Below, in pieces: positions 1-40,193 of a stretch of 64,000 bases of DNA (its first letter is position 1; each line of letters starts with the position of its first letter). Made by a program: the position numbers and the translations under genes. Under the pieces are notes generated by a model. It worked only from the letters and a program-made list of their open reading frames with translations. It searched no databases and was not told the DNA's origin. Location: the NCBI GenBank assembly GCA_011050465.1, contig DRFQ01000010.1, forward strand, positions 15,514-79,513. Reading direction: 5' to 3'. The DNA is from Candidatus Nealsonbacteria bacterium. GTDB taxonomy: Bacteria > Patescibacteriota > Minisyncoccia > Minisyncoccales > RBG-13-36-15.

Positions 1-821
1 TAGTGATTTGAATTAGCGCTTTGATTAGTGGTTATTTTACAAATACTGGCCAACTTTTTTAAATCCCTAAAGCCAAAAGTTACAAAGACAGCCAAGCCAA
101 CTAGAATAGCTATTAAAGCGGAAAGAGAAAAATAGAATATCTGCGGGTTAACTAGAATTATCTGTCCGTTTTTAACCATCATGTTTTCCCCAATCTTTAT
201 TATAGAAAAATTAAAGAGGCCATGCAAGACAATAGCCAGGGTGAATCCTGTAAATAATAATTTCCTTTTTTGTTTGGGTGTAAAGAATGATCTGGCCAGA
301 AAATAACCCAGAGTTCCAGAAGCTAAAGCGTGTAAAAAAGTGGCCCCGACGAAACGAAAGGCAATGATTATCGAGGCTTCCTTAATTAAAAGCGGTTTTT
401 CGGGAAAGGATAAAACAAGGATATTTTCAACTGCCGCAAAACCCAAGGCCGCAATTATCATATAAAGAGGAATATCTAAGGGCTCATCAAGTTCTGAGCT
501 TTTGAGGACTTTTATTTTTATTACTAAAAATTTAGCAATTTCTTCAATTGTAGCTACGCCCAAAAAGATATAAAGAAGGCCTCCCAACGGAAGAAAATCT
601 TTAAAGAATGAAGGCAGAAAACATTTTATTGCTCCACCTTCTGGGTGAAATCCGATTGGAATACATTCTGCTATAGCTACCAAAGGAACTATTGCCATTC
701 CCAGCAGAAAAACTAAGATAATCATTCGGTTTGATTCAGGATGCACATCTTTTCTAAGAAAAAACAGAAGCCAGATAATACTGGGGGCTAAGCCAAGAAC
801 GATATAGAGAAGAAAAATCAA
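1..821 (-). CDS. PrsW-family intramembrane protease (partial; C-terminus runs off the left edge)
   Basis: Absent from the ORF track because it stays open to base 1. Manual minus-strand translation from TTG 821 (in-frame ATG at 725) gives LIFLLYIVLGLAPSIIWLLFFLRKDVHPESNRMIILVFLLGM...GVATIEEIAKFLVIKIK...IIAFRFVGATFLHALASGTLGYFLARS. Multi-pass hydrophobic profile with an EExxK motif and a His-containing TM segment, as in PrsW-type proteases. Confidence 0.55.
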   Translation of the reverse strand, partial: MIFLLYIVLGLAPSIIWLLFFLRKDVHPESNRMIILVFLLGMAIVPLVAIAECIPIGFHPEGGAIKCFLPSFFKDFLPLGGLLYIFLGVATIEEIAKFLVIKIKVLKSSELDEPLDIPLYMIIAALGFAAVENILVLSFPEKPLLIKEASIIIAFRFVGATFLHALASGTLGYFLARSFFTPKQKRKLLFTGFTLAIVLHGLFNFSIIKIGENMMVKNGQIILVNPQIFYFSLSALIAILVGLAVFVTFGFRDLKKLASICKITTNQSANSNH

Positions 822-9983: not shown

Positions 9984-10091
9984 AAACCTTGGCCTAAACA
10001 ATCTTCACGCAGATCTCTAGAATTAGATATATGAGTCGATCCATGTTGCTGATCTGCGAGGAAATCTGCGTTTTTCACGAAGTGAAAAATT

Positions 10092-10622
10092 ATGATAGAA
10101 ATTATACCTAAACCAACAAAAAAAGAGCCCGTATGGACAAAGATTCTGTTTTTTCTCTCAATAGCAGTTTTAATGGGAATTACTGTGGCTTTCTTTCTTT
10201 TCGGTTATTTTATCGGGGAAGAAGAGAAGACTTTAGAATCAACAAAGAAAATTTTAGCCCAACCAAGAAGCACGAATGAACAGGAGTTAGAAAGAAGAGT
10301 TTCTCAATATCAGCGAAAGATTGACGACTTCACTCTTTTAATTAACCAGCATAAAGTTAGCTCTGATTTTTTTGCGTTTCTGGAGGGAATAACTCATCCC
10401 CAAGTCTGGATTTCTGAATTAAATTTAAATACCCAAACAGCCGAAGTTGAATTGTCAGGGGAGGCAGAAAAGACAGCTTTGGGTCAGCAACTTTTAATTT
10501 TTAGAGAAGACAAACAAATTTTAAGAACAGATTTATCTAATGTTCGGGTGAAAGAGGGAGAGAAAGTTGGTTTTACTATTTTACTTTTTCTTCATCCAGA
10601 AATTTTCAAATTTTTAAAATAA
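10092..10622 (+). CDS. PilN-like bitopic pilus alignment protein
   Basis: 176 aa. One N-terminal TM helix, a coiled-coil segment, position directly after pilM. Confidence 0.55.
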   Translation: MIEIIPKPTKKEPVWTKILFFLSIAVLMGITVAFFLFGYFIGEEEKTLESTKKILAQPRSTNEQELERRVSQYQRKIDDFTLLINQHKVSSDFFAFLEGITHPQVWISELNLNTQTAEVELSGEAEKTALGQQLLIFREDKQILRTDLSNVRVKEGEKVGFTILLFLHPEIFKFLK

Positions 10623-11165
10623 ATGCCTAGAATTTTTATCAGTTTTATTTTACTTGGTATTTCCCTTGTTCTTGGGGTAATTTTCTTTTGGCCTCGTTAT
10701 CAAGAATTAGATAATCTTCGGGTTCAAATCGAGAATGAAAAACAGGAAATTCAGAATCAAAATGAATATTATCAAGCGCTGTCCCTGATTTCTAAAGAGC
10801 TCGATAAACACCGAGAAGAACTAACAAAAATTGATTCGGCCCTATCCCTTAATCCTCCGTTACTATCATTATTGAAGTATTTACAAAAAGTTGCTCCCGA
10901 AAATGGACTAATCTTAACGGGTATCAGCTCCTTTTCGACTAAACCTATTCCTGAAAGAGCCGATATTAAAGAAATCCAGGGTTCTTTAGAACTTTCTGGT
11001 TCTTACTCTTCTTTGAAAAACTTTTTGAAAACTTTAGAGAAATCAGCTCGTCTAATTGAAGTAGATAGTATTTCTTTTTCGGCTTCTCAGAACAAAGAAA
11101 GCGAGACAGTTGAGATATCAGAGATATTTAATTTTTCACTATCAATAAGAACTAAATCTTATTAA
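10623..11165 (+). CDS. PilO-like bitopic pilus alignment protein
   Basis: 180 aa. N-terminal TM helix plus a long coiled coil. Start abuts the upstream stop. Confidence 0.6.
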   Translation: MPRIFISFILLGISLVLGVIFFWPRYQELDNLRVQIENEKQEIQNQNEYYQALSLISKELDKHREELTKIDSALSLNPPLLSLLKYLQKVAPENGLILTGISSFSTKPIPERADIKEIQGSLELSGSYSSLKNFLKTLEKSARLIEVDSISFSASQNKESETVEISEIFNFSLSIRTKSY

Positions 11166-11287
11166 TCCTTCGACATTGCAGTCCGGTCTTGAGCATTTTG
11201 GCCCGATTGAATGGAAGACTTCACTGCCGAAAGGCTCGGGATTAAGGCTGAGGGCTTCGAGTAAGCCTCAGCCGAACTCCTCGCCGA

Positions 11288-11563
11288 ATGTTTTCAATGG
11301 CTTTGCCATTTTTTCAACAAAGAAAAAGACAAAAATATTTAAATTGGATTTTTATAATTGCAGTTTTAATTGGCGCACTTTGGTTTGGCCAAAATTATTT
11401 ATTTAAACCCCTCTCTTCTCCACCATTGACACCAAAAGAAAAGAAGGTAGAAATCAATCTCGAGATATTAGAGAAACCCATACTTCAAGAACTTCAGCCT
11501 TTTGAAGAAATCCCTCCCTTTGAAGGAGATATCGGTCGAGAAAACCCCTTTTTACCATATTAA
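11288..11563 (+). CDS. Small single-pass membrane protein of the pilus operon (function unknown)
   Basis: 91 aa. Basic N-terminus, one TM helix (WIFIIAVLIGALWF), Pro/Glu-rich tail. Call rests on position only. Confidence 0.4.
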   Translation: MFSMALPFFQQRKRQKYLNWIFIIAVLIGALWFGQNYLFKPLSSPPLTPKEKKVEINLEILEKPILQELQPFEEIPPFEGDIGRENPFLPY

Positions 11564-11697
11564 AAAATGACACCAATACACTAATCGTATACTAATGTCA
11601 CGAATAATTTATTAGTGTTATTCGTGCTTTATCAACCCTACGGGGAGTCTCACTCTTTCTGAAGAAAGAGTGAGCCAGAGTAAATTAGTGTCGGGTT

Positions 11698-13452
11698 ATG
11701 ACTTTAGTTATGACTTTAGTTCAACAATTACTCAAGCAAGAGGTAATTGACAGAGAAAAGGCCACTTCTTTAGAATTTGAAATTAAAAACTCAGGAAGGA
11801 AAGAAGAAGAGGTAATTTTAGAAAAAGGAGTGGTTGATGAAAAATTCTTATTTAATCTGAAAAGCGAAAATCTTAAAATTCCCCTAAGAGAAGTCCGCGC
11901 CGAAGATGTTCTTCTGGAAACCTTAGAACTTATTCCCGAAGAGTCAATCAGATACTACAAAATGATTCCTTTAGCCAAAGATAATAATGTCTTAGAGATA
12001 GGAATGGTTTATCCCAGAGATACGGTTGCCCAGGAAGCTTTAAAATTCTTAGCTCGCCAGAATAAGTTCTCTTATCAGATTTCTCTAATTGCTCCCACTA
12101 CCCTTGACAACCTTCTAAAACAATACCGCACCCTGAAAGGAGAGGTTACCCAGGCCTTAGAAGAGTTAGAAACCGAGCTGAAAGGCGAGAAAGTCAAGGC
12201 CAGACCTTTAAAGAAATCAGAGATGGAAAGGTTGGTCGAAGAAGCCCCCGTTGTTAAGATAGTAGCTGTTATTGTTAGGCATGCTGTAGAGGGGAGAGCT
12301 TCTGATATCCACATCGAACCCCTTAGAAAAAAATCAAGAGTTCGTTTTAGAGTAGATGGCCTTTTAAAATCTAGTATTTTTTTACCCCTAAGAATTCATT
12401 CAGCAGTGATAGCAAGAATAAAAATTCTTTCCAACATGAAGCTTGATGAAACTAGAATCCCTCAAGATGGACGTTTTTCTACCAGGATAGGAAATCATGA
12501 TATTGATTTTAGGGTCTCAACCTTTCCTACCATCTTGGGAGAAAAAGTAGCTCTTAGAATTTTAGACCCAGAGAAAGGATTAAAGTCAGTTGAAGGGCTT
12601 GGTTTAACAGGAAGAAACTTAAAAATAACGAAAGAAGCTCTCCAAAAACCTTATGGGTTGATTTTGATTACCGGTCCAACTAGCAGCGGCAAAACCACTA
12701 CTTTATATGCCATGCTCTCTCGTTTAAATAAAGAGGAGGTAAATATTTTAACCCTGGAAGACCCAGTTGAATATTATCTCGATGGCATCAACCAGTCTCA
12801 GGTTAGACCGGAACTTGGTTTTGATTTTGCCAAGGGTCTTAGGCATTTAGTTAGACAAAATCCTAACATCTTAATGGTTGGAGAAATTCGAGACCCGGAA
12901 ACTGCCAACGCTGCCATCCATGCCACCCTAACTGGCCATATAGTTCTATCGACCTTACATACTACAAATGCTTTAGGGGTGGTTCCGAGATTAGTTGATA
13001 TGGGAGTGGAGCCATTTTTAATTCCGGCAGTTTTAAATATTGCCATGGCCCAGAGATTGATTAGGATTCTTTGCCCAGATTGTAAAAAAAAGATAGTACC
13101 GAAACCAGAAATTAAAGATTTAATCCTTAAAGATATTGAGAATTTGCCTTCTTCGACAAAAAAAGACGTTAAAATTCCAAATCCACTCAAGATTTATACA
13201 GCCGAAGGTTGTAAAAAATGTAATCAACAAGGGTTTTTTGGCCGGACAGCTATTTTCGAGGTTTTAAAAATGACAGACGAATTAGCTGAGATTATTTTAA
13301 AAGGCACAACCGAGGCCAAGATTAAAGAAGAAGCTTTCCGTCAGGGAATGATTACTATGAAACAAGACGGAGTCTTAAAGGTTCTTCAGGGCATCACTTC
13401 AATAGAGGAAGTTATTAGAGCAGCTGAAGAAATAAGAATAGTGGAGGGATAA
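11698..13452 (+). CDS. pilB: Type IV pilus extension ATPase PilB (GspE family)
   Basis: 584 aa. ASDIHIEP, GPTSSGKTTTLY (Walker A), MVGEIRD, tetracysteine CPDC...CKKC. The first 12 nt are tandemly duplicated (atgactttagtt x2), so the start could be 11710. Confidence 0.9.
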   Translation: MTLVMTLVQQLLKQEVIDREKATSLEFEIKNSGRKEEEVILEKGVVDEKFLFNLKSENLKIPLREVRAEDVLLETLELIPEESIRYYKMIPLAKDNNVLEIGMVYPRDTVAQEALKFLARQNKFSYQISLIAPTTLDNLLKQYRTLKGEVTQALEELETELKGEKVKARPLKKSEMERLVEEAPVVKIVAVIVRHAVEGRASDIHIEPLRKKSRVRFRVDGLLKSSIFLPLRIHSAVIARIKILSNMKLDETRIPQDGRFSTRIGNHDIDFRVSTFPTILGEKVALRILDPEKGLKSVEGLGLTGRNLKITKEALQKPYGLILITGPTSSGKTTTLYAMLSRLNKEEVNILTLEDPVEYYLDGINQSQVRPELGFDFAKGLRHLVRQNPNILMVGEIRDPETANAAIHATLTGHIVLSTLHTTNALGVVPRLVDMGVEPFLIPAVLNIAMAQRLIRILCPDCKKKIVPKPEIKDLILKDIENLPSSTKKDVKIPNPLKIYTAEGCKKCNQQGFFGRTAIFEVLKMTDELAEIILKGTTEAKIKEEAFRQGMITMKQDGVLKVLQGITSIEEVIRAAEEIRIVEG

Positions 13453-13580
13453 TAACCACCAATAAAACACTAATTAAGACCACCAATAGAACACTAATTT
13501 AACACAAATATTCACTAATAACGTATTCGTGATAATTAGTGAGTAATTCGTAATTTATTCGTGGTTGTGATTCGCGGCAT
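13450..13580 (+). repeat. 131-bp intergenic module, copy 1 (TTAGTG/TTCGTG word array filling the pilB stop to regulator ATG gap)
   Basis: Differs from 15014-15144 at 6 positions over 131 bp by manual alignment. Confidence 0.9.
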
Positions 13581-13949
13581 ATGAAAACAATTTTACTAAT
13601 TGAAGACGACCCCTTTTTAGTTGATCTTTATACCACTAAATTCAAAGAGATTGGATTTGAAGTTGAGGTTGCCACTAACGGCCGAGAAGGATTGAGAAAG
13701 ATGAAAGTAAAAAAGCCCGATATTTTGCTTTTGGATATTGTTTTACCAGCTATTAATGGCTGGGAAATTCTTGGAGAGATGAAAAAAGATGAAGGGTTGA
13801 AAGATTTAAAAGTTGTTATTCTTTCTAATCTTACTTCAAAAGAGGAGGTAGAGAGAGGCCTAAAACTGGGAGCGGATAAATATTTAATTAAATCCCACTA
13901 TACTCCCTCAGAAGTCGTTAAGGAAATTAAAAAAATTTTAGAACAATGA
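13581..13949 (+). CDS. CheY-like single-domain response regulator
   Basis: 122 aa. LLIEDDP, DILLLDIVLP (phospho-acceptor Asp context), conserved K (YLIKS). No output domain. Confidence 0.85.
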   Translation: MKTILLIEDDPFLVDLYTTKFKEIGFEVEVATNGREGLRKMKVKKPDILLLDIVLPAINGWEILGEMKKDEGLKDLKVVILSNLTSKEEVERGLKLGADKYLIKSHYTPSEVVKEIKKILEQ

Positions 13950-15016
13950 CAGATTACCACAATTTAATAAAAGAATTTCTTTCTTTATGCATTGAAGCTC
14001 AAGCTTCGGACCTGCATCTTTCGGTTGACCATCCGCCAATACTGAGAATTACCGGAAGATTGGTTCCCCTCTTGAAGGAGAGAAAATTAATCGCTCAAGA
14101 TACCCAAGAATTAGCCTTTGTTCTAATGACCGAGAATCAAAAAGAGAAATTTTTAAGAGAAAAGGAAATTGATTTTTCCTATGCTTTTGGCGAAAAAGCC
14201 CGTTTTAGACTAAACATTTTTTTCCAAAGTTCAAATATTAGTATTGCCTGCCGTTTGATTCCGTCTAAAATTAAAACCATTGAAGAACTAAATCTCCCGC
14301 CAATTTTACATACTTTTACCCATCATAGTCAGGGATTTGTTTTAATAACCGGCCCCTCTTCTCATGGTAAATCGACTACTCTAGCTGCTTTAATCGATGA
14401 GATTAATCATACCCGGGCTGATCACATTATTACCATTGAAGATCCGATTGAATATGTTTTCGAAGACGATCGTTCAATTATTGACCAAAGAGAGCTTTAT
14501 GCAGATACCCACTCTTTTACCAGGTCTCTCCGTTCTACTTTACGTCAGGATCCCGATGTTATTATGGTTGGAGAAATGCGGGACTCCGAAACTATGACCA
14601 CGGCCATTACTGCTGCTGAAACAGGCCACTTGGTCTTTGCAACCCTGCACACCAATTCAGCCGGCCAGAGCATACATCGGATTGTTGATTCTTTTTCTCC
14701 TGCCCAACAGAACCAAATTAGAGCTCAGTTGGCTTCTTCTTTATTGGGAGTGATTTCTCAAAGATTAATCCCCAGTCTTAAGGGAGGTTTAATACCTGCC
14801 TGTGAGGTGATGCTGGCCACTCCAGCTATTGCCAATTTAATTCGAGAAAATAAAGTTCACGAGATTCCTTTAGTCATTGATACCTCAGCTGAAGAAGGGA
14901 TGATATCTTTAGATAGATCTTTGGCCGCATTAGTGAGAAGAAAAGAGATTTCTTTGGATAGTGCTTTGCTTTATTCTCAAAGTCCGACGGAATTACGGAT
15001 GTTAGTAAGAAGATAA
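13946..15016 (+). CDS. pilT: Twitching-motility retraction ATPase PilT
   Basis: 356 aa. ASDLHL, GPSSHGKSTTLA (Walker A), MVGEMRD, GHLVFATLHT. The start overlaps the regulator stop (ATGA). Confidence 0.9.
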   Translation: MTDYHNLIKEFLSLCIEAQASDLHLSVDHPPILRITGRLVPLLKERKLIAQDTQELAFVLMTENQKEKFLREKEIDFSYAFGEKARFRLNIFFQSSNISIACRLIPSKIKTIEELNLPPILHTFTHHSQGFVLITGPSSHGKSTTLAALIDEINHTRADHIITIEDPIEYVFEDDRSIIDQRELYADTHSFTRSLRSTLRQDPDVIMVGEMRDSETMTTAITAAETGHLVFATLHTNSAGQSIHRIVDSFSPAQQNQIRAQLASSLLGVISQRLIPSLKGGLIPACEVMLATPAIANLIRENKVHEIPLVIDTSAEEGMISLDRSLAALVRRKEISLDSALLYSQSPTELRMLVRR

Positions 15017-15144
15017 TAACCACCAATAAAACGCTAATTAAGACCACCAATAAAACACTAATTTAACACAAATATTCACTAATAACGTATTCGTGATAAT
15101 TAGTGAGCAATTCGTAATTTATTCGTGGTTGTGATTCGTGGTCT
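15014..15144 (+). repeat. 131-bp intergenic module, copy 2 (pilT stop to pilC ATG)
   Basis: Near-identical to 13450-13580. Both copies start at the upstream TAA and end at the downstream ATG. Confidence 0.9.
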
Positions 15145-16353
15145 ATGAAGTTTTCCTATCAAGCCAGAACTGAAGATGGAGACATTCAATCAGGTATTGT
15201 TGAAGCTTTTAGTCGAGAGGCAGCTTTGGCTATATTGCAAAAACACGGAATTTTCATCACCGCTTTAGAGGAAGCTGGGGCTCATCCTATTTTTGCTAAA
15301 AAAATAAAATTATTTAGGGGAATTTCCAGAAGAGATAAGGCTATTTTTGCCCGCCAGCTTTCAATTATGTTTAAAAGCAAGGTAGCTTTAACCGAATCTT
15401 TGAGGGTGATGGTTATCCAGACTGAAAGCCTTTCTTTCCGGGAAAAAATTGTTAAAATTACTGAAGACGTTGAAGCTGGAGCCTCTTTGTCTAAGGCCCT
15501 TTCCCGTTTTTCGGAGGTCTTCTCCCCCTTTTTTATCAGTATAATTAAATCAGGAGAAACAGCTGGTAAGCTTTCCAAAGCCTTGGAATATTTAGCTGAT
15601 CACCTAGAGAAAGAAAATGATTTTTATTCTCGAATTCAAGGAGCAATGCTTTATCCTATAATGGTAATGGTAGTGATGGGTGGAGTAGTTTTGATAATGG
15701 TTCTCTTTGTTTTTCCTCAGATTTCCCAAATTGTTAAAGACATGGGGGTTGAGCCTCCTTTAATGACTAGAATTGTTTTTGGGACGGTTGATTTTATCAA
15801 AAAATGGATAATAGTTATGATTTTAGTTTTCATTACTGCCGTCTTATTCGTTTACCAGTACTTGAAAACAAAGGAAGGAAAAACCCTTTGGAATAAAGTT
15901 TCTCTAAAGATTCCGGTAATCAGCGGTCTTTTAAAAAAAATCTATCTTTCTCGTTTTGCTGAAAATCTTTCCACTTTGATTTCAGGCGGTGTCCAGATAG
16001 CCCCGGCTTTAGAGACAGCCGGAGAGGTAGTTGGCAACGAAGTGTACAAAGCTATTATTATTGAAGCTCGTGATACTGTTAGAAAGGGAGGCCAGATAAA
16101 TTCAGTCTTTGCCAAATATCCAGGAAGCTTCCCGCCTCTTTTTACCCAAATGACTTCAGTGGGGGAGAGGACCGGAACCTTAGAGGAAACTTTAATGCAT
16201 TTAGTTGATTTCTACCAAAAAGAAGTTAACAGAAGCTTGGAAAATGTTCTAGATTTATTGGTTCCCCTTACCATTGTGGTTTTAGGAATAGTTGTCGGAG
16301 GAATGGTGGGGTCTGTGATTCTTACTCTTTATAATGTCGTCGGAATGATGTAA
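15145..16353 (+). CDS. pilC: Type IV pilus platform protein PilC (GspF family)
   Basis: 402 aa. Two GspF-type repeats and three TM segments. Confidence 0.85.
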   Translation: MKFSYQARTEDGDIQSGIVEAFSREAALAILQKHGIFITALEEAGAHPIFAKKIKLFRGISRRDKAIFARQLSIMFKSKVALTESLRVMVIQTESLSFREKIVKITEDVEAGASLSKALSRFSEVFSPFFISIIKSGETAGKLSKALEYLADHLEKENDFYSRIQGAMLYPIMVMVVMGGVVLIMVLFVFPQISQIVKDMGVEPPLMTRIVFGTVDFIKKWIIVMILVFITAVLFVYQYLKTKEGKTLWNKVSLKIPVISGLLKKIYLSRFAENLSTLISGGVQIAPALETAGEVVGNEVYKAIIIEARDTVRKGGQINSVFAKYPGSFPPLFTQMTSVGERTGTLEETLMHLVDFYQKEVNRSLENVLDLLVPLTIVVLGIVVGGMVGSVILTLYNVVGMM

Positions 16354-16388
16354 CCCCCCACCACTTTTAAATAAAAAGTGGTGGGGGG
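16354..16388 (+). terminator. Strong hairpin after pilC
   Basis: ccccccaccactttt-aaataa-aaagtggtgggggg, a perfect long stem. Confidence 0.6.
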
Positions 16389-16558
16389 CTCGGTTCTCGC
16401 TTCACCGAGCACTTAACGACTCAACGTTTTAAGTGCTTGGCTTCGCTCGACTTTTCCACAACTTGACTTGATTTAGATATGTTATAGTAAAAAAAGACAT
16501 TAATAAAAGGTCGAGCCAATAAACAATAAACAATAAATAATAAATAATAAAATTGAAA

Positions 16559-17110
16559 ATGACTCAATTTTTCAGTAAAAAAAGAGGAGAAAAGGGTTTT
16601 ACCTTGATTGAATTATTGGTGGTTATCGCCATTATCGGAATTTTAGCCGGAATTGTCTTGGTGGCTTTGGGTGGAGCAAGAGACAAAGCCAAAGATGCCA
16701 GAATTCAAGCTAGTGTAGCTCAAACAAGAGCGCTTGCGGAAATGTTATATACTGGTACTGTGTACCCCGACGGAACCGCTGGTGCCAACGACGGCTTTGA
16801 TACACCAGTGTATACTGGTGGTACCGCTCCTGCTTGTACTGGGGACACGACCCGTGACTCAAGTTTAAAAGCTCTTGACGGTGATGTACGCGCACAACAA
16901 GGTGCACTCTGTACTACTGCTGCGGCCGTGAATACAGGTGCCTTGGGGAAAGCAGGCATCTTTATAGTAAAGTCTGCTGGCGATGATGCTTACGCGGCCT
17001 ATGTGGCTCTTAAGAGTGGGACCGACAAAGGTTGGTGTGTTGATTCTATTGGTAAATCCCAGGCTTATACTCTTCTGGCGGCAGATCCGACGACGACAAC
17101 TTGTCCATAG
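16559..17110 (+). CDS. Type IV pilin, paralog 1 (candidate major pilin)
   Basis: Leader MTQFFSKKRGEKG then FTLIELLVVIAIIGILAGIVL (class III signal, G|F cleavage site, Glu+5). C-terminal Cys pair. The track ORF begins at TTG 16553; the first ATG is 16559. Confidence 0.85.
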   Translation: MTQFFSKKRGEKGFTLIELLVVIAIIGILAGIVLVALGGARDKAKDARIQASVAQTRALAEMLYTGTVYPDGTAGANDGFDTPVYTGGTAPACTGDTTRDSSLKALDGDVRAQQGALCTTAAAVNTGALGKAGIFIVKSAGDDAYAAYVALKSGTDKGWCVDSIGKSQAYTLLAADPTTTTCP

Positions 17111-17205
17111 AGTATGTAAAAATTGTCTAAATTAGGGCGTAAATTAGGGTCAGTTCTATTTCCTGATTGAAAATTAGTGAGATCATCCTTACACACGATT
17201 TCCGG

Positions 17206-17237
17206 CAATCAACCCGCCAGCGGCGGGTTGATTTTTT
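17206..17237 (+). terminator. Rho-independent terminator after pilin 1
   Basis: caatcaacccgcc-agcg-gcgggttgatt followed by a T-run. Confidence 0.75.
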
Positions 17238-17299
17238 TATTTCTTTTCTTTAATTTTTGTTGTATAATTTAAGAATACAAAAACAATTAACAATTAACA

Positions 17300-17803
17300 A
17301 TGCACTCAATCCTTATCAGAAAATATCGAGGCTTCACTCTCATTGAGATACTAGTCGTTATTGCCATCATCGGAATTTTGGCAGGCATCGTTTTGGTGGC
17401 TATGGGTGGAGCGAGGAATAAGGCAAAAGATTCCAGGATTATTGCCGAGATGGGCCAGCTTCGGAACGCAGCCGATCTATTTTACAACAATAATCACGAT
17501 AGTTATACCAGCCCTCCAGGTTCTACCAACTTTGATTGTACCGTTACTAACCCAAACATTGATGCCCTTTGCGCTGACATGGCTGTCCAGGGAGGGATAA
17601 AACCATCTGATGAAGCTACTCCTGAATACGGGGTAGATATTATTGTTACTGATCAGGCTTATTGCGCCGAGGTAAAATTAAATTCAGGGAAATATTGGTG
17701 TATAGACAGTCAGGGGAGATCAGCGAGATATGATGCGAACACTACACCCACTGAGCCTGCCTGTGATGATACGCCTGGCTCAGAAGTTTATACTTGCGAA
17801 TAA
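17300..17803 (+). CDS. Type IV pilin, paralog 2
   Basis: MHSILIRKYRG then FTLIEILVVIAIIGILAGIVLVAMGGARNKAKDSRI. The N-terminal 40 aa are near-identical to paralog 1 and the C-terminal domain is divergent, with four Cys. Confidence 0.85.
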   Translation: MHSILIRKYRGFTLIEILVVIAIIGILAGIVLVAMGGARNKAKDSRIIAEMGQLRNAADLFYNNNHDSYTSPPGSTNFDCTVTNPNIDALCADMAVQGGIKPSDEATPEYGVDIIVTDQAYCAEVKLNSGKYWCIDSQGRSARYDANTTPTEPACDDTPGSEVYTCE

Positions 17804-17837
17804 TAAATTTAAAAAACGAAAAAGCCGGATTTTTTTC

Positions 17838-17872
17838 GCAATCAACCCGCCGAAGAGGCGGGTTGATTTTTT
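17838..17872 (+). terminator. Rho-independent terminator after pilin 2 (paralog of 17206-17237)
   Basis: gcaatcaacccgcc-gaagag-gcgggttgatttttt. Confidence 0.75.
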
Positions 17873-18206
17873 CATGTTTATTTCGACACCTTTGATTCCC
17901 CCAATAACCTTAATATAATAATTTTACCGGGAACTGTTCCCGAAAAGTTAGTCTTTTATTTCCCTTTTTTAATTTTTAGAGTATAATTTAATAATGTTTA
18001 GTTCGACAAAAGCGAAGAAAATTTTCCGCGTCGTGCCCACCTACCTTCTCGACGCAAATCAGATAGAACTGACACGCGATAATCATTCTCAAGGTGCCAG
18101 TTTTAAGTATTTCAACGGGCAGGAAGGCGGGCGGGTGAATCCGCATAGCTACCCGCGCCTGCCCCGTAGGGAACTAAAGGTTCTCCTTCGGGGTCAATCC
18201 GCTTCT

Positions 18207-18830
18207 ATGAATAAGGGTTTCACTTTAATCGAACTCTTAGTCGTTATTACCATTATTGGCATTTTGGCCGGCATTATTTTGGTTGCAATGGGATCAGTAC
18301 GAGAGAAGGCAAAAGATACCAAAATTGAGAGCAATATGCTTCAGCTCCAGCAGCTAGCTGAAAATCTCTATTTAGACTATGGAAATTATGATAATGTAGA
18401 CCCTACTATCTCGTCTGAAATTGCTGCTATTGAAAATGATATCATCACCCAAGGAGGTTCGCCACTAACTATTAAAACACCTTTACCAGCTGATACATAC
18501 TGTGCTTATACATCTTTAAATAAAACTTTAGACGGACAACAGGTCTATTATTGCACTGATTATTTGTTTAGGAACCAGCAGATTGGGGATCCTTCTATTG
18601 GTTGTTATGATACCTGTTTTGTTTGTCCAGCCTGCCTCGATTCCAATGGTGATGGTTTGATGACGGCCGGTCCTGACCCGATACCAAACGAGCTGTTGAA
18701 CATGTTCATATCGTCTTGTTGGGGGCAGCCTGCTTCTTGTAATCCCAGCCTAGATTTAGATTGTAATGGAATAATCAATATCTTAGATGTGATGTCTTAT
18801 AGCGGCTTAATACCTTATCCTTGTCTATAA
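18207..18830 (+). CDS. Type IV pilin, paralog 3, with Cys-rich dockerin-like (EF-hand type) C-terminal module
   Basis: MNKG then FTLIELLVVITIIGILAGIILVAMGSVREKAKDTKI. C-terminus has CLDSNGDGLMT and DLDCNGIINILDV (DxDxNGxIxxxD). The track ORF extends in-frame up to ATG 17994 through a GC-rich leader. Confidence 0.75.
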   Translation: MNKGFTLIELLVVITIIGILAGIILVAMGSVREKAKDTKIESNMLQLQQLAENLYLDYGNYDNVDPTISSEIAAIENDIITQGGSPLTIKTPLPADTYCAYTSLNKTLDGQQVYYCTDYLFRNQQIGDPSIGCYDTCFVCPACLDSNGDGLMTAGPDPIPNELLNMFISSCWGQPASCNPSLDLDCNGIINILDVMSYSGLIPYPCL

Positions 18831-18897
18831 TTTTCTTAGAGAATACTATTAACTGGTCCGTCCCGCCCTCAGAAAGGGCTTTTTACTCTGCTTTTTG

Positions 18898-18906
18898 TGT
18901 TATAAT
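18898..18906 (+). promoter_or_regulatory. Extended -10 element (TGtTATAAT) 6 nt upstream of the pilD ATG
   Basis: Exact TGnTATAAT. The spacing implies a leaderless or near-leaderless transcript. Confidence 0.5.
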
Positions 18907-18912
18907 CAGAAA

Positions 18913-19740
18913 ATGGCGCTAAATTTTCTTTTTTACTCCACTATTTTTATTTTTGGCCTAACAACAGGTTCTTTCCTGAATTCGATAATTTATCGCCTCC
19001 AGGCTGGGGAAGGCTTTTTACTTGCCCCGTTAAAATCTCGAGGAGATTTTTTTTCGGGGTTTCAAAGATCCTATTGCCCTCATTGCAAAAGAACTCTCAG
19101 TTGGCAGGATTTAATTCCTCTTTTCAGCTTTTTATTTTTAAAGGGCAAGTGCCGTTATTGTCAGAAAAAAATCTCCTGGCAGTATCCTTTAGTAGAAATA
19201 GCAACTGCGATGCTATTTCTGCTAATTCTCAATTCCCAATTCTCAATTCCCAATTCCCAATTTCTAGATTTTATTTATTTGTTAGTTATTTCTTGTATGT
19301 TGATCATTATTTTTGTCTATGACTTAAAACATTACATCATTCCCGACAAAATAATTTATCCGGCAATAGCCTTAGCCCTAATTTATAATTTCTACCAATT
19401 CGCTATCAACAATCAACAATTAGCAATGAGCAATTTCTTGGCTGCCATATTCGCTTCAGCTTTCTTTTTCTCGGTTGTTCTTATTTCAAAGGGTCGCTGG
19501 ATGGGTTGGGGCGATCCTAAATTAGTCTTTTTTATGGGATTATTGCTTGGTTTCTCCAATATTTTAGTTGCCCTCTTTATAGCTTTTTTATTCGGAGCTA
19601 TAATAGGAATAGGGCTGATCATCTTCAGAAAGAAAACATTCAAGAGCGAAGTTCCTTTTGGGCCGTTCTTAATTACCGGAACCCTTATAGCTTTGTTCTG
19701 GGGCAAAGAAATTATAAACTGGTATTTGCATTTACTCTAG
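18913..19740 (+). CDS. pilD: Prepilin peptidase PilD (A24 family)
   Basis: Multi-pass membrane protein. CPHC...CRYC zinc motif, YDLKHYIIPD and GWGDPKL catalytic Asp contexts. The track ORF starts at TTG 18895; ATG 18913 is preferred. Confidence 0.85.
   Translation: MALNFLFYSTIFIFGLTTGSFLNSIIYRLQAGEGFLLAPLKSRGDFFSGFQRSYCPHCKRTLSWQDLIPLFSFLFLKGKCRYCQKKISWQYPLVEIATAMLFLLILNSQFSIPNSQFLDFIYLLVISCMLIIIFVYDLKHYIIPDKIIYPAIALALIYNFYQFAINNQQLAMSNFLAAIFASAFFFSVVLISKGRWMGWGDPKLVFFMGLLLGFSNILVALFIAFLFGAIIGIGLIIFRKKTFKSEVPFGPFLITGTLIALFWGKEIINWYLHLL
19224..19262 (+). repeat. 14-bp tandem repeat (about 2.5 units of ctcaattcccaatt) inside pilD
   Basis: aattctcaattcccaattctcaattcccaattcccaattt, encoding NSQFSIPNSQF. 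Confidence 0.8.
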
Positions 19741-25460: not shown

Positions 25461-25655
25461 TTTAGTATATTAGTATGTCGGATTGATTAGTCTTTCTTAG
25501 TTTTCCTCTTGAGGATCCGGCAAGCGAACGGTCGGTTAGCGAAGAAACAATTGGAGAATCAGCGGACGAACAGCTAGTTGAATAATAGTATTTCGTATTT
25601 GGTATTTTGTATTTAGTATTTTGTATGTTGTATTTCGTATCTCGTATTTAGGAAT

Positions 25656-26043
25656 ATGAAAATTAGATCATTTACTGATCTCGATGCTTGGCGAGAAGGA
25701 CATAAATTGGTTTTAATGATTTACAATATTGCCAAGCACTTTCCGTCGGAAGAAAAATTTGCTATTATTAATCAAATGCGACGCTGTGTTGTTTCTATCA
25801 CTTCAAACATTGCCGAAGGCTTTGCCCATCAATCTAAAAAAGAGAAAATTCAGTTTTACTCTATAAGCTAAGGGATCAAATACTGAGTTACAAAACCAAC
25901 TTTTAATCGCAAAAGATATAGAATATTTAGAGCGGAGAGATTTTAATAAGATGGCCGATCAATCGACAAAAGTTAGCAAACTTTTGAATGGTCTAATAAA
26001 GTTTTGTAAAAAATCAACCAAAATATCAGATACGAGATACTAA
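25656..26043 (+). pseudogene. Four-helix-bundle protein (23S rRNA intervening-sequence protein family), interrupted by a 1-nt frameshift
   Basis: Frame 0 gives MKIRSFTDLDAWREGHKLVLMIYNIAKHFPSEEKFAIINQMRRCVVSITSNIAEGFAHQSKKEKIQFYSIS then a stop at 25869. The +1 frame continues AKGSNTELQNQLLIAKDIEYLERRDFNKMADQSTKVSKLLNGLIKFCKK to a stop at 26041. Deleting one A near 25866 restores a family-typical protein of about 128 aa. Confidence 0.65.
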
Positions 26044-26059
26044 GTACTATATACGAATT

Positions 26060-28222
26060 ATGCGGGAACAACTTATTAATATTTTTTCAAAAATTATTGA
26101 GTGGGGATTAATTCTTCTGGTTTTTTTATTACCCTTGTTTTTTCTTCCGATAACTACGGAAGCTTTTGAATTTCCTAAACAGCTATTGCTTATCTTTTTT
26201 GTGAGCGTTTTAACGATTATTTGGGCAATCAAGATGATTCTGGAAAGGTCAGTCAAGATACTTCACAGCCCTCTGACAATACCTATTCTTGCTTTCTTTG
26301 GCTTTTTCTTTCTTTCAACAGTCTTTTCTGTTCATCGTTTTGCCTCAATTTTTGGCTCCTATCCCAGGTTTAACGATGGCTTAGTCAGCCTTTTTATCTA
26401 TCTTCTTGTTTTTTTCTTAGTGGCCTCCAATATTAAAGAAAACAAACAGATTGTTAGAATTTTAGCTTTTATCAGCTTTTCCGGAGTTTTAGTCGCCATT
26501 TTAGGAATTTTGAATTTCTTTGACTTTTATCTTTTGGCTAATTTACTAAAGAATCCCCTGATAACTCCGGCTGGTTTTGCGGATAGAACTGTTTTCTTCT
26601 TAGCAATTTTGTTCCCGATTATATACTGGGTTTTTCTGTTTGAAAAGAAAAAAATCTTTCAGGTTCTTTCGGCTCTTACTGGCTTCCTTTTTCTCTTTTA
26701 CATTTTTCTAATTTCGCATTTGGCAGCAATTTCAGCTGTTTTTTTGGTTTTTCTTTTACTTCCTGCCTTGGGTCGCTTTCAGCTCTCAAAAGTAATAGCG
26801 ATTAAAGTTGGAATTGTTTTTTTAACTTTCCTTTTCCTTTTGGCTATCAACAATATCGGATTTATTAAATCTCAAATCCCATTTCTCAAAGATAGAACTG
26901 TTCAACACGAATTAAAAATTAGTCCAAATACAGCCTGGGCAATTACCACGGGTTCTTTTCAGAATTTAAAACTTTTAACTCTGGGCTCAGGACCAGGGAC
27001 CTATCTTTTTGACTTCACGTCTTTCAAGCCGATTGGATTCAATCAAACTCCTTTCTGGAATCTTCGTTTCGAAAGGTCTTTTAATGAATATTTTCAAATT
27101 ATATCCACCTTGGGAATTTTAGCTTTCTTTGCTTTTCTGTGGATTTTGTTTAGATTTTTTCAAATGGCCAGGGAGGTCCGGAAGAAAATAACTTCTGAAA
27201 ACAAAGAAAGTCATACTTTAGCTTTTGGACTATTCTCTTCTTTGTCTGTCTTTTTATTGATTTCCTTATTTACTTCCTCTTTTACTTTAATTTACTTTAC
27301 ATTTTGGTTGTTTTTAGGATTGGCCGTATCTTTTTCTCGTATAGCTGGTTTAGGACGTTCGGCTGAGCTCAGTCGAAGCCCTGGAGTTAGAGATATTGAG
27401 CTTTCTTTAGCTACCATTCAGATTCGAGGGATAAGCGAAAGGAAGGGCGAGATTATGCCCTGGTTGGCAGCAGCTTTTATTATTTTAGTTTTATTACCTT
27501 TATTGTGGAAAGAAGCAAAGATTGTTCAGGCCGAGCTTCATTTTGCCAGAGCCCAAATTGAACAGCTGCAAGAAAGCCCAGATCCTGATTTAATCTTGGG
27601 CTCTTTAGTTAGGGCCAGAAATATAATGCCAAATAATGACAGTTATCGGAGAGCTCTATCTGCAATCTCTCTTAATTTTACTATTTTGGCTGAGCAGCAA
27701 AAATTATTATCAGACGAAGCAAGGCAGCAACTTTTACAGACTGCAGTAATAGAAGGAGAGATGGCTGTTCGTTTGGCTCCCCATAATATTTTCAATTGGG
27801 AAAACCTCCAAAGAGTTTATAGTTTAGTTACTCTTGAAAATCAAGATGATCTATTAATAAACAATGTCTTTCCCCAAGAGATTTTGCTTGATCCAGCCAA
27901 TCCCAGACATAGGAATGATTTAGGTTGGACCTACTTTAACTTAAGGAACGACATTGAATTAGCTAAGAGAAATTTCCAAGATGCTATTTCTTTGAAGCCA
28001 GATTTTGTCGATGCCCATTATAGCTTAGCCAGAGTTTATAAAGAAGAAGGGAAAAGAGATTTGGCCTTACCCCAATATGAACAAACCTTGAATTTATTGA
28101 ATCAGCAAATTGCCTCTCTGGAACCAATTGCCTCAGCATGGCCAGACTTGCAAAGAACTTTAAATCAACTAAAACAACTTGAAGTTCAGATAAGGTCAGA
28201 GCAAGAAATCCTTTTACAATAA
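26060..28222 (+). CDS. O-antigen ligase/polymerase-like multi-pass membrane protein with C-terminal TPR repeats
   Basis: 720 aa. At least 10 TM helices in the first 480 aa, then TPR-like repeats (AHYSLARVYKEEGKRDLALPQYEQTL). Confidence 0.55.
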   Translation: MREQLINIFSKIIEWGLILLVFLLPLFFLPITTEAFEFPKQLLLIFFVSVLTIIWAIKMILERSVKILHSPLTIPILAFFGFFFLSTVFSVHRFASIFGSYPRFNDGLVSLFIYLLVFFLVASNIKENKQIVRILAFISFSGVLVAILGILNFFDFYLLANLLKNPLITPAGFADRTVFFLAILFPIIYWVFLFEKKKIFQVLSALTGFLFLFYIFLISHLAAISAVFLVFLLLPALGRFQLSKVIAIKVGIVFLTFLFLLAINNIGFIKSQIPFLKDRTVQHELKISPNTAWAITTGSFQNLKLLTLGSGPGTYLFDFTSFKPIGFNQTPFWNLRFERSFNEYFQIISTLGILAFFAFLWILFRFFQMAREVRKKITSENKESHTLAFGLFSSLSVFLLISLFTSSFTLIYFTFWLFLGLAVSFSRIAGLGRSAELSRSPGVRDIELSLATIQIRGISERKGEIMPWLAAAFIILVLLPLLWKEAKIVQAELHFARAQIEQLQESPDPDLILGSLVRARNIMPNNDSYRRALSAISLNFTILAEQQKLLSDEARQQLLQTAVIEGEMAVRLAPHNIFNWENLQRVYSLVTLENQDDLLINNVFPQEILLDPANPRHRNDLGWTYFNLRNDIELAKRNFQDAISLKPDFVDAHYSLARVYKEEGKRDLALPQYEQTLNLLNQQIASLEPIASAWPDLQRTLNQLKQLEVQIRSEQEILLQ

Positions 28223-28387: not shown

Positions 28388-28653
28388 GACAAACTATTTA
28401 AAACGAGTAAACTTAAAAATAGACCATTTGTAATCAAAGGGTATTTTTTATATATTTGATTCAGGTTTTCTCAATTGATTTCTATAAACAATTAAAACTT
28501 TAAACAATTTCCTACCCTAAAAAAAATTAAATTTAGGGATTTTTTGCGTTTTATTCGGCTCTACGAATCTAAACGGATTACGAATATCGACCCTCCGGGG
28601 GAGTCGCTAATGAGACAGCGTAATTCGATAAAATTCGTAACTAGTGAAAAACT

Positions 28654-31600
28654 ATGAAGAAGGTCAAAACAAAAAACTTCGGGAAATCAAAAGTTCGACT
28701 TTCTTTACCTTATTTACTTGAACAACAGCAAGAAAGCTGGAAGAATTTTTGTCGAAGAGATCTAAAAGAGCTTTTCGTTGAGATGTCACCAATTCGGGAT
28801 TATACCGGCAAAGAGCTGGAGCTTTGGTTTTTAGATTATAAATTAGATACGCCCAATTATAAGTCTGACTTAGAGGCGAAGCAGAATAATGATTCTTACG
28901 CAGCCCCTCTGAGAGTAAAAACCAGGCTAGTTAATTTAAAAACAAAAGAGATTAAAGAACAAGAAGTATTTTTAGCTGATTTCCCTCTTATGACTGAACG
29001 GGGTACTTTTGTTGTCAATGGGGTTGAGAGAGTAGTTATCTCTCAGCTTATTCGTTCGCCAGGTGTTTTCTTTACGATGCAGACTAGCGGGGGAAAAAAC
29101 TATTTTGGTGCAAAGATTATTCCAAACAGAGGAGCTTGGTTGGAATTTGAGACGGAAAGTACGGGTTTCATTGGAGTTAAAGTTGATCGGAGAAGAAAAG
29201 TATCAGCCACCATGCTGCTGAGAGCTTTGGGAATTGATAAAGAAAATCAGATAAAAGAACTTTTTCAAGATGTAGACAACGACCCCGAAATTAAATATAT
29301 TGAGGAAACTTTAAAGCGCGATTCCACCCACAACCAGCCAGAGGCCTTGGTTGAAATTTATCGAAGATTAAGGCCAGGAGACTTAACCACCCCGGATACT
29401 GCCCGTGAACTGTTTGAGAATATGTTCTTTAAATTTGAGAGGTATGATTTATCTAAAGTAGGAAGATGGAGAATGTGGCAGAGATTATCAGAGTTAAGGA
29501 GCCGTAAATTACGAGATAAAAACAAAAAAGAGAAAAAAGTTTTAACTCAAAACTCTGGAGAGGAAATTACTGTTTCAGACAGAGTATTAAAGCCAGAAGA
29601 CATTGTTGCTGTCTTAAGAGAAATTATTCGTTTAAATAACGATCCCGAAGGAAAACCAGATCAAATTGACCATTTGGGAACCAGGAGGGTAAGGGTTTTC
29701 TCGGAGCTTTTGCAAAATAGATTAAGGGTGGGACTAATGAGAATGGAAAGAATAATCAAAGACAGGATGTCAACTTTAGACGTTTATACTCTAACCCCTG
29801 CCCAGGTTATTAATCCCAGGCCGTTCATGGCAGTGGTAAGAGAATTTTTTACCTCAAGCCAGATTGCTCAATTCATGGATAATGAAAATCCTTTAGCTGA
29901 ATTAGAGCACAAAAGAAGATTATCAGCTACTGGACCCGGCGGTTTAACGAGGGAGCGAGCCGGTTTTGAAGTGAGAGACGTTCAGCCTTCTCACTATGGC
30001 AGAATTTGTCCCATCCAAACTCCGGAGGGACCAAATATTGGCTTAGTTGGACATTTGGCTTCTTTTGCCAAGATTAATCCTTATGGATTTTTAGAAACTC
30101 CCTATTTTAAAGTGAAAAAAGGTAAAGTTACTTCAGAAATTCATTACCTTAATGCTTATGAAGAAGAGAAATATAATATTGCTTCAGCCAGCATTCTTCT
30201 TGATAAAGATAATAAGATTTTATCTTCCAAAGTGGAAGCTCGAATAAAAGGAGAGCCAGGAAAGATAGAAAAAGAAAAAATTGATTTTGTTGATGTTTCT
30301 TCTGAACAATCTATTTCGGTTGCTACTTCCTGCATTCCTTTCTTGCAGAATGATGATGCTAATCGCGCCCTAATGGGTTCAAATATGCAGAGACAGGCTG
30401 TGTCTTTAATAAAACCAGAAATTCCTTTAGTTGCTACCGGAATAGAAAGGAATGTTGCTACAGACTCGGGACAGGGAGTGATAGCTCCGGAAGACGGGAC
30501 AGTTATTAGGGTGGATGCCAGTCAGATAACACTAAAAATGAAAGGGAAAAAACCTGAAATCCAGAGATATGAATTGCGAACTTTTCTTCGAACCAATCAA
30601 TATACCTCTTTTCATCAACGGCCAGTAGTCAAGAAAGGAGACATTGTTAAACGAGGAGACATTTTGGCCGATGGAGGGGGAATCTCTCGAGGATTTTTAG
30701 CCTTAGGCCAAAATATCTTAGTGGCTTTCTTGATTTGGCGGGGAAGTAATTTTGAAGATGCAATAATTATTTCTAAAAAATTAGTGCAAGATGATATCTT
30801 TACTTCTATTCATATAGAAGATTTTACTTGCGATGTTCGGGAAACAAAACTGGGGCCCGAAATTACTACCGCTGACATTCCTAATGTTGGAGAAGAAAGA
30901 TTAAAAGATTTAGACGAAGAAGGAATAATTAGGATTGGAGCCGAGGTTGGACCAAGCGATATCTTGGTTGGGAAAATCTCTCCTAAAGGAGAGGCTGATT
31001 TAACCTCCGAAGAAAGATTGCTGCGAGTAATCTTTGGAGAAAAAGCCAGAGAAGTTAAAGACAGCTCTTTAAGAATGGAACACGGAAAGAGAGGAAGGGT
31101 GGTTGAAGTGAAGCTTTGGGAAAGAGAGAAGGGGGCGAAGTTAGAACCTGGAGTAATCAAAAGAATTCAAGTGGAGATAGCTGAAATTCGAAAAATTCAA
31201 GCCGGAGATAAATTAACCGGTCGTCACGGAAACAAAGGGATAGTTGCTCGAGTCTTACCGGCCGAAGAAATGCCTTTTTTGGCAGATGGCACGCCGGTCG
31301 ATATGATTTTGAATCCCTTGGGTGTTTCCTCAAGAATGAACCTTGGTCAGATTTTAGAAACTCATCTTGGCTGGGCAGCTAAAAAGCTGGGTTACATTGC
31401 TTTGTCTCCGGCACTAGCCGGAGCAACCGAAAAAGATATAAAAATCGAGCTAAAGGCAGCCGGCCTACCAGAAGACGGAAAAGTAACCTTATTTGACGGA
31501 GTGACCGGTGAACCTTTTGGGGCCAAAATTACAGTTGGCTACATTTATATGATGAAGTTGATTCATATGGTGGTTGACAAGATTCATATGCGTTCCATTG

Positions 31601-39362: not shown

Positions 39363-39566
39363 CTATTTTGTGGTATATGGAAGCAACCCAAAATGGCGTG
39401 CTCTTTTTATGGCTTTTGCGAGCTTCCTTTGATGCAAGGAACAAACTCTGGTCCTTTTTTTGGCTCTGATTTTGGCCAGACCGGAGGTAAATTTCCCCAA
39501 AGTTCTAATATCTTTAAAGTCAATTTCTTGAAAGTTGTGTTTACAAAAATAACAGTTACCGTCCAT
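39363..39566 (-). CDS. rpsR: 30S ribosomal protein S18
   Basis: 67 aa. CYFC...IDFKDIRTLGKF...RKLAKAIKRARHFGLLPY. Part of a conserved rpsF-ssb-rpsR arrangement. Confidence 0.85.
   Translation of the reverse strand: MDGNCYFCKHNFQEIDFKDIRTLGKFTSGLAKIRAKKRTRVCSLHQRKLAKAIKRARHFGLLPYTTK

Positions 39567-39642: not shown

Positions 39643-40193
<551 letters not shown>

Follow-up and report, generated by a model that had tools for sequence, protein, structure and literature searches.

Why should a single pilus operon hold two nearly identical pieces of non-coding DNA, each filling the gap between two genes from stop codon to start codon? The question is raised by a 64,000-nucleotide stretch of DNA from a Candidatus Nealsonbacteria bacterium (contig DRFQ01000010.1, positions 15,514 to 79,513; hereafter the window), in which the two pieces bracket a response regulator gene and the pilT gene. 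An earlier interpretation made from the letters alone (the sequence-only reading) had described them as near-identical 131-bp repeats with six differences that run from one gene's stop to the next gene's start, and every detail was borne out by our direct comparison and gene calls. Copy A (13450-13580, plus strand) fills the spacer between pilB, whose TAA occupies 13450-13452, and the regulator, whose ATG begins at 13581, and copy B (15014-15144, plus strand) fills the spacer between the stop codon of pilT (15014-15016) and the ATG of pilC at 15145. The bracketed segment (13581-15016, plus strand) consists of a receiver-only response regulator of 122 residues (13581-13949) and pilT (13946-15016), which overlap by 4 nt. 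Pfam identities in the operon are T2SSE with MshEN for pilB, the product of which is an ATPase of 584 residues, Response_reg for the regulator, T2SSE for pilT and T2SSF for pilC. By repeat search and direct comparison the direct repeat measures 138 nt (13448-13585 against 15012-15149), with 132 of the 138 positions identical (96%), a longest mismatch-free run of 54 nt (13490-13543) and six mismatches between copies A and B, at 13469 (A/G), 13489 (G/A), 13544 (T/C), 13575 (C/T), 13578 (C/T) and 13579 (A/C). The assertion that such conservation is not due to chance also holds, as the window has exactly two occurrences of a 31-nt core pattern and 100 shuffles have none.

The paired repeats are not an assembly artefact, because independent assemblies carry both copies with the same six differences. 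Those assemblies come from JGI and ENA, an NCBI assembly likewise has copy B, and short Logan contigs end within the shared core, as is expected of a genuine repeat. An ENA assembly of the same organism (L002; L numbers denote the loci compared here) departs from the window sequence around the prepilin peptidase gene (window about 18830-19740), the difference amounting to about 155 nt, and a shorter prepilin peptidase product is called from it. As to what the repeats are, we consider it probable that they are sister copies of a small, palindromic, selfish hairpin element without an open reading frame (ORF), resembling miniature inverted-repeat transposable elements (MITEs), repetitive extragenic palindromic (REP) sequences and the intervening sequences (IVSs) of ribosomal RNA, which is dispersed in a clade of Patescibacteria, tolerated at operon junctions and not specific to the pilus.

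The anatomy of the copies is one of short, regularly phased words. Copy A holds the left word CACNAAT six times (13457, 13468, 13481, 13492, 13503 and 13513) and the right word ATTNGYR five times (13525, 13535, 13546, 13557 and 13570), all on the plus strand, and copy B has the same layout with five CACNAAT words and CGCTAAT as the remaining left word (15032). The inverted word ATTNGTG appears five times in the 3' half of each copy, and word spacing is 10-13 nt. A canonical member of the family is about 88 nt long and comprises four CACNAAT words followed by four inverted ATTNGTG words, about 11 nt apart, near positions 2, 13, 25 and 35 and then 46, 56, 67 and 78. By word layout, this canonical 4+4 core occupies 13478-13565 in copy A and 15042-15129 in copy B, both on the plus strand, and an extra 24-nt unit on its 5' side (13455-13478 and 15019-15042, plus strand) duplicates the first two left words in tandem. 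The canonical ends, ACCACYAAT on the left and ATTNGTGGT on the right (that is, ACCAC...GTGGT), are kept in 22 aligned copies. Across the family, members are 80-130 nt long with stop codons in every frame and hence no ORF, the loop, in which inserts are tolerated, is 0 to about 45 nt long, and the spacers between words are 3-5 nt. Across the alignment of 22 copies, information is close to its maximum at the six fixed positions of every word and the central N and the inter-word spacers are variable, giving a 3-1-3 pattern.

The sequence-only reading had tied the repeats to the pilus genes and to the regulator-pilT pair in particular, and this link did not survive a wider search. An nhmmer model built from 21 family members was run on the window and other loci and found the window to contain five copies and several other loci two or three each. 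In addition to copies A and B, the window contains a partial, degenerate member upstream of pilB (11572-11631, plus strand; E = 3e-5) that reads CACCAAT, CACTAAT and CACGAAT followed by ATTAGTG and ATTCGTG, and two diverged members on the minus strand that fill the rpsF/ssb spacer (40104-40192; E = 4e-13) and the ychF/rpsF spacer (40617-40713; E = 7e-9). A probable truncated member lies at the edge of the window (1-47), where the minus strand reads AATAACCACTAATCAAAGCGCTAATTCAAATCACTA; it was recognized by eye and alignment and falls below the nhmmer threshold. The left terminus ACCACYAATNAAACACNAAT matched 112 loci in a scan of public metagenome contigs, and about 32 of these are true members sharing the 4+4 layout. 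The 31-nt core pattern had no match in these contigs, a collection evidently without the source contig and that of the relative L086, and a viral collection yielded six chance matches to the terminus pattern, none with right-arm words. Where flanks could be identified, most members have their left end between -8 and +3 nt from the upstream stop codon and their right end at most about 25 nt, most often no more than 10 nt, from the next start codon. Nearly all members sit between co-directional genes, both element orientations are found, and the genes downstream include ftsZ, ssb, hisS, pyrG, a methyltransferase gene, DUF498, a pilin gene and a receiver-only regulator gene. The repeat is instead a generic, abundant spacer, the outcome that the sequence-only reading had itself named as refuting it, with five copies in the window and about 30 more in other metagenomes before unrelated genes.

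The closeness of the two pilus copies also has parallels in the family. Family junctions in the window are clustered, with three adjacent pairs among five of 39 junctions (permutation P = 0.004), and adjacent copies occur elsewhere, such as a pair in L159 that is 93% identical with 680 nt between the copies and a pair in L163 that is 83% identical. Spacer similarity within a locus exceeded the 99th percentile of between-locus similarity in 25 of 476 pairs, among which the window pair shows the highest similarity. Since copies recurrently cluster at adjacent junctions, sister copies that bracket one or two genes are a routine outcome in this family.

Relatives allow the history of the two copies to be reconstructed. 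The PilT relatives are Parcubacteria/Paceibacteria-like metagenome-assembled genomes (Patescibacteria), which keep the order pilB, regulator, pilT, pilC with or without spacer elements and mostly with tight junctions, the spacers measuring 3-128 nt apart from the 290 nt of L098 given below; because this order is conserved irrespective of the spacers, the repeats did not bring in the regulator-pilT pair. Among relatives with 80-87% PilT identity, L086 and L087 have a pilB/regulator spacer of 98 nt with unrelated words and a pilT/pilC spacer of 117 nt homologous to the window copy, and L092 has 16 nt at the first junction and 96 nt at the second, the latter homologous but of a different subfamily. 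Other words fill both spacers of L090 (70 nt and at least 60 nt), and the corresponding lengths are 56 and 28 nt in L091, 17 and 3 nt in L084, and 47 and 8 nt in L099 and L100. In L098 a pilB/regulator spacer of 17 nt accompanies a pilT/pilC spacer of 290 nt that holds a different palindrome bounded by a GC-rich inverted repeat. Between the window and L086, the pilT/pilC spacer is identical at 80 of 89 ungapped positions, against 44-53% identity at the four-fold degenerate sites of the flanking genes (P = 7e-14), so that the repeat has diverged less than neutral sites. Recent horizontal transfer of the pilT-pilC segment was rejected as the cause of this conservation, as identity in the flanking coding sequence is not raised.

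No relative at 80-87% PilT identity has sequence of the copy A type at its pilB/regulator junction, where the spacer is short or made of unrelated words. The derived 6+5 layout, meaning the extra 24-nt unit at the 5' end and an extra 3' word, is common to both window copies; the L086 ortholog has the extra 3' word without the 24-nt unit, and in L088 (98% PilT identity) a pilB/regulator copy is present and the pilT/pilC copy apparently lacks the 24-nt unit. Copy B, orthologous to the pilT/pilC spacers of L086/L087 and L092, is the older and copy A the younger, because L086 and L092 carry the homolog at pilT/pilC only while the derived layout is common to both window copies. Copy A was made from copy B after the 24-nt duplication, with about three changes in each since. 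The suggestion of recent copying or gene conversion is upheld by the same two facts, that only the pilT/pilC spacer of relatives carries the sequence and that the derived layout is shared, and local duplication, gene conversion and local transposition are all conceivable routes.

Several features of the family are those of MITEs, namely conserved terminal inverted repeats, small size, the lack of an ORF, dispersal, and presence or absence at orthologous sites. Repeats of related build also enclose genes. In one locus (L177), a left arm of the CACNAAT family is followed by a complete GxxExxY gene (PF13366, PD-(D/E)XK) and then by a full element. In L009 a GxxExxY gene lies between four CGCTGA and four TCAGCG words, and the pilT/pilC palindrome of that locus has a GxxExxY pseudogene in its loop, and three contigs from a higher-GC organism (L147, L134 and L106) have a GxxExxY gene between three ATTAGTG and three CACTAAT words. 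In the window itself, the ORF at 25656-25871 encodes a truncated four-helix-bundle protein (PF05635, TIGR02436; the 23S rRNA IVS protein) that is interrupted by a stop codon and flanked by inverted repeats of tandem GTATTTNG-type words (25617-25647 and 26030-26060, region 25590-26062), the right arm ending exactly at the ATG of the next gene. In an independent sample, the replicons of PLSDB, four of six annotated GxxExxY genes have inverted repeats on both sides and are squeezed in between co-directional genes, fabD/fabG being one instance. Tandem-word inverted repeats flank the genes of Bacteroides finegoldii (L220; 30 nt, 90% complementary), Sphingomonas parapaucimobilis (L222; 25 nt, 92%) and Bernardetia (L224; 28 nt, 86%), a 16-nt inverted repeat flanks that of Treponema saccharophilum (L219), and the termini are such as TTCAC...GTGAA. 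Small GIY-YIG and DUF2283 ORFs in relatives have flanks without obvious paired word arms, and no GxxExxY relatives were found in the viral collection.

GxxExxY and four-helix-bundle proteins are the two families recorded in 23S rRNA intervening sequences, which have been described as selfish, with inverted repeats at their bounds and RNase III as the enzyme that excises them (PMC4990558). The CACNAAT family is in part established as the empty counterpart of hairpin-ended elements that carry one or other of these genes, and the pilus copies, which carry no ORF, would be placed in the IVS-type class by inference from shared words and architecture. The invariant words may be recognition sites for a protein, most plausibly a nuclease encoded by the element, and such recognition would explain both the spread of the element and the conservation of word sequence. 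The position and symmetry of the element fit a selfish nature. It would be transcribed within the operon mRNA, where its arms could fold back on each other, so that the stop codon before it and the start codon after it would meet at the foot of a single stem. That stem could keep initiation coupled to termination in an organism where Shine-Dalgarno sites are hardly used, or alternatively RNase III could cut it as in rRNA intervening sequences; with coupling kept or the stem processed, insertion would be tolerated either way. The sequence-only reading had listed translational coupling and mRNA processing among possible functions, and it is a reasonable inference that any such role belongs to the whole family, with nothing special to the pilus operon. 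We put forward more tentatively, as a possibility to be held with some doubt, that the phased words are recognition sites of small GxxExxY PD-(D/E)XK proteins and that words and proteins together define a single class of selfish elements with hairpin ends that spans phyla and also gives rise to the ORF-bearing 23S rRNA IVSs. Elements of this class would home into the stop-start junctions of operons and leave ORF-less 4+4 derivatives such as the two pilus copies, with each protein lineage co-evolving its own word (CACNAAT, CGCTGA, CACAGAGG or CGCGAAG).

A number of results weigh against the reading of the repeats as tolerated selfish hairpins. Inspection of the flanks revealed no target-site duplication consistent across copies, the left dinucleotides being mixed (TA, AA, TT, AT and GT) without a match on the right. 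In the window we found no transposase, GxxExxY gene or other candidate partner gene for the CACNAAT family, the link to GxxExxY genes rests on a handful of cases of which only L177 uses CACNAAT words, and two of the six PLSDB GxxExxY genes have no flanking inverted repeat. Orthologous copies are 90% identical where neutral sites are about 50% identical, which could instead reflect purifying selection at the level of the host and hence a host function. Nor does folding speak strongly for a hairpin: folded as single sequences, the copies are predicted to form a long, imperfect hairpin (about -26 kcal/mol) with only z = -2 against shuffles, the antisense strand of the family folds better than the sense strand, and under explicit word-to-word pairing the covariation score (0.023) was below all 500 shuffles (mean 0.035), with the central word positions able to pair in 8 of 22, 5 of 22, 10 of 22 and 1 of 17 copies. 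The hairpin potential follows from the inverted order of the words and has no independent support. Because the words are conserved as sequence and base-pair covariation is absent, their pattern points to likely recognition by a protein.

Recognition by a protein is also the core of the main rival to the selfish-element reading, in which the repeats are a host regulatory module. Eight helically phased CACNAAT words would bind a DNA- or RNA-binding protein of the host that sets expression of the downstream cistron, through translational control, coupling or a roadblock, at many junctions including pilB/regulator and pilT/pilC. The invariance of the words against variable spacers, in the 3-1-3 pattern at about 11-nt spacing, is what such a module would show, as are the lack of covariation, which leaves sequence and not pairing as the conserved property, and the 90% identity of orthologous pilT/pilC copies against about 50% at four-fold sites. 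In most members the right terminus ATTNGTGGT also lies close to the start codon (at most about 25 nt, mostly no more than 10 nt) in a genome nearly devoid of Shine-Dalgarno sites, where a Shine-Dalgarno-like motif, weak at best, was seen upstream of only 5 of 48 called window genes. An analogous proposal exists for the TAACTGA heptamer repeats of Beggiatoaceae, Cyanobacteria and Bacteroidetes, which lie near start codons in regions that rarely have canonical ribosome-binding sites and for which a post-transcriptional role has been suggested (PMC4679880). These repeats are the nearest analogue of the CACNAAT family and, like the cyanobacterial short tandemly repeated repetitive (STRR) sequences, are tandem heptamer words a few nucleotides upstream of start codons, although they are contiguous direct repeats of one word, whereas the family described here has a direct set spaced at about 11 nt and an inverted set. 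Against a host module stand the observations that the same junction is empty or holds unrelated palindromes in equally close relatives, that the words are decaying in the older copies (ychF/rpsF and rpsF/ssb), that the many word vocabularies of one small genome would need as many binding proteins, and that the downstream genes have no common functional theme. On balance we regard a host regulatory module as unlikely.

That the hairpin shape itself is the selected feature, as in a structured cis-regulatory RNA or a small RNA, appears considerably less probable. The arms are inverted, the stem of the copy B fold runs from about 18 nt after the stop codon to 7 nt before the start codon, the loop varies from 0 to about 45 nt and accommodates inserts, and hairpin-prone spacers are enriched in the lineage, with z below -3 in 38% of 149 co-directional spacers from Patescibacteria loci versus 6% of 65 from loci outside the candidate phyla radiation (CPR). 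The alignment of 22 copies, however, gave an RNAalifold consensus of -1.08 kcal/mol with no compensatory pairs, in keeping with the covariation score below that of shuffles, and searches of Rfam returned nothing relevant to the repeats at gathering thresholds or at E <= 1. A folding advantage of the sense strand, which through G-U asymmetry might have served as proof of selection at the RNA level, failed to appear, with the sense strand favored in 77 of 149 Patescibacteria spacers and likewise no advantage in 28 hand-picked spacers, added to which is the better folding of the family's antisense strand. An exact 6-mer word statistic proved too strict to separate CPR from non-CPR spacers (13 of 149 versus 2 of 65).

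A control element specific to the pilus, either an internal promoter or operator or an mRNA processing site that tunes the regulator-pilT pair and pilC relative to pilB, is very improbable. The copies do bracket the retraction ATPase module, and a weak -10-like GATAAT can be read in the center of each copy (13531-13536 in copy A), but this motif is not conserved across the family alignment, the family precedes unrelated housekeeping genes, and relatives with tight pilB-regulator-pilT-pilC junctions do without the element. The internal promoter or operator proposed in the sequence-only reading found no support in a consensus scan for terminators and promoters across 11000-18500, which listed no promoter- or terminator-like site within 13450-13580 or 15014-15144 and, in the same scan, canonical terminators after the pilin genes at 17207 and 17840. 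We give equally little credence to the repeats as a programmed substrate for recombination, by which RecA-mediated deletion of the regulator-pilT segment would produce piliated, non-retracting variants. The direct 131-bp repeats share a 54-nt identical run and recA is present at 38257-39273, yet no junction of pilB to pilC was found among 12 contigs with an exact PilC or nine with an exact PilT, all of them consensus assemblies, and the phase variation that had been suggested is not borne out by them. Such a deletion would moreover be irreversible, and adjacent family copies that bracket one or two unrelated genes are common elsewhere, which makes the bracketing by copies A and B a by-product of local copying. 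Because recA is encoded in the window and the 54-nt run is available, an occasional deletion of the regulator-pilT pair is physically possible, as an incidental and irreversible event and not a demonstrated phase switch. Other candidates were also set aside, with integron attC sites, DNA uptake sequences, DnaA boxes and omega heptads dropped because their motifs do not match, an anti-Shine-Dalgarno or Shine-Dalgarno-mimic considered and dropped, and an array of Tas-associated tandem guide RNAs (TIGR; array definition from PMC12045711) excluded by the period of about 11 nt with 7-nt words and 3-5-nt spacers and by the lack of a Nop-domain match among the window proteins scanned.

Comparison with known repeats helps to place the selfish element that we favor. 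The Correia elements of Neisseria, the ERIC sequences of enterobacteria, and the RUP and BOX elements of pneumococcus are alike in their size of about 90-130 bp, inverted-repeat ends and lack of an ORF, in having many diverged copies per genome with presence or absence at orthologous sites, and in lying between co-directional genes with the potential to form a long imperfect hairpin in mRNA. The CACNAAT family differs from them in that its arms are four phased, invariant heptamers and not a simple inverted repeat, in showing no target-site duplication together with near-exact filling from stop to start, and in having as candidate partner a small PD-(D/E)XK (GxxExxY) gene and not a DDE transposase. 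REP, BIME and REPIN sequences, which are associated with RAYT proteins (Y1 transposases), are similar as extragenic palindromes inside operons that are locally clustered and have a sequence recognized by a protein, and a REP close to the upstream stop codon affects the mRNA stability and translation of the upstream gene. The present family, unlike these, lacks a GTAG-headed unit of 20-40 nt, and no Y1_Tnp gene occurs in the window. A REP/REPIN-RAYT system was rejected for the absence of the GTAG motif from the words and the negative result of a tblastn search of the window for Y1_Tnp. Y1_Tnp genes of IS200/RAYT type do lie beside the pilin genes in L084 (13236-13946) and L086 (14054-14752) and are not flanked by CACNAAT words. 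The L084 gene is flanked by CGGGAACAGTTCCCG hairpins; the window is without the gene and has a similar hairpin at the syntenic position, about 17925-17950.

The ends of Tn7, Mu and plant CACTA elements offer a further analogy, with several short recognition words per end that are direct within an end and inverted between ends, although the scale of the CACNAAT family is much smaller and it has no known transposase. With the intervening sequences of 23S rRNA, the family and its relatives share inverted-repeat bounds that form a stem and the same two small-protein families within related, word-built repeats (PMC4990558). The elements described here differ in lying between protein-coding genes and, for the pilus copies, in carrying no ORF, and cleavage by RNase III is only proposed. 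Arms built from tandem words were not found in published descriptions of IVSs, and we found no paper that describes word-built arms or ORF-less derivatives at operon junctions of Patescibacteria. The CACNAAT repeat family itself looks undescribed.

Other spacers of the window use different word vocabularies on the same plan. Two of them (802-917 and 39554-39653) form a second palindromic family with 8-nt words, in which CATTGCTA/CATTGCCA repeats are followed by AACAATGTA repeats, within the outline CATTGCTA.../...ACAATGTA. One of these sites is between the minus-strand genes for a PrsW-like protease and a class I tRNA synthetase and the other just after ssb, and the sense RNA of this family has a folding energy of -30 to -33 kcal/mol (z about -7). 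The spacer at 28560-28656 is built of TACGAAT/ATTCGTA words and that at 25590-25650 of GTATTTNG words, both on the plan of the CACNAAT family. A GC-rich hairpin family, AACCCCG...loop...CGGGGCAGG, is intergenic at 19816, 21708, 22954, 34974 and 35615 in direct and at 18157 and 46489 in inverted orientation, and a CCCCGTAGG...CTACGGGG pair of the same flavor bounds the 290-nt pilT/pilC insert of L098. The arms of an 87-nt GC-rich inverted repeat (83% complementary) lie within the reading frames of uvrC and uvrA, at 50235-50321 and 56282-56368, with related intergenic pieces nearby (46118-46215 and 58995-59029); this may be a palindromic insert family able to lie in frame inside genes. A further hairpin, TTTTTCACGAAGTGAAAAA, followed by ATG, precedes pilN (10065-10094), and the same sequence fills the pilT/pilC junction of L091 (7086-7115).

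Some signals near start codons were also seen. A TATAAT box lies 7-10 nt before the start codon of several genes (near 17980, 35650, 41830, 54940 and 61345), a position that suggests leaderless or very-short-leader mRNAs. The pilin genes have a conserved promoter/leader motif, TTTTCCACA-CTTGAC...TATAGT, at 16455-16515 in the window, 12280-12470 in L084 and 8318-8430 in L091. The window and L084 have AAAGGTCGA after it, a short way ahead of the start of the pilin gene; AGGTCGA also precedes pilin starts in more distant relatives, and in L091 a GIY-YIG ORF is inserted between the pilin promoter and the pilin gene.

Our findings indicate that, for the pilus operon, the paired repeats are ordinary and do not testify to a dedicated device for regulation or phase variation. 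In annotation they are best handled as dispersed repeats, which also break short-read assemblies. The operon junctions of these tiny, Shine-Dalgarno-poor genomes routinely hold word-built palindromes. The ORF-less spacers are here connected to the genes for GxxExxY and four-helix-bundle proteins, whose function and spread have been a puzzle ever since their discovery in the intervening sequences of rRNA. If it is true that the words are recognition sites of these proteins, the movement of the elements and their tolerance by the host would become directly testable.

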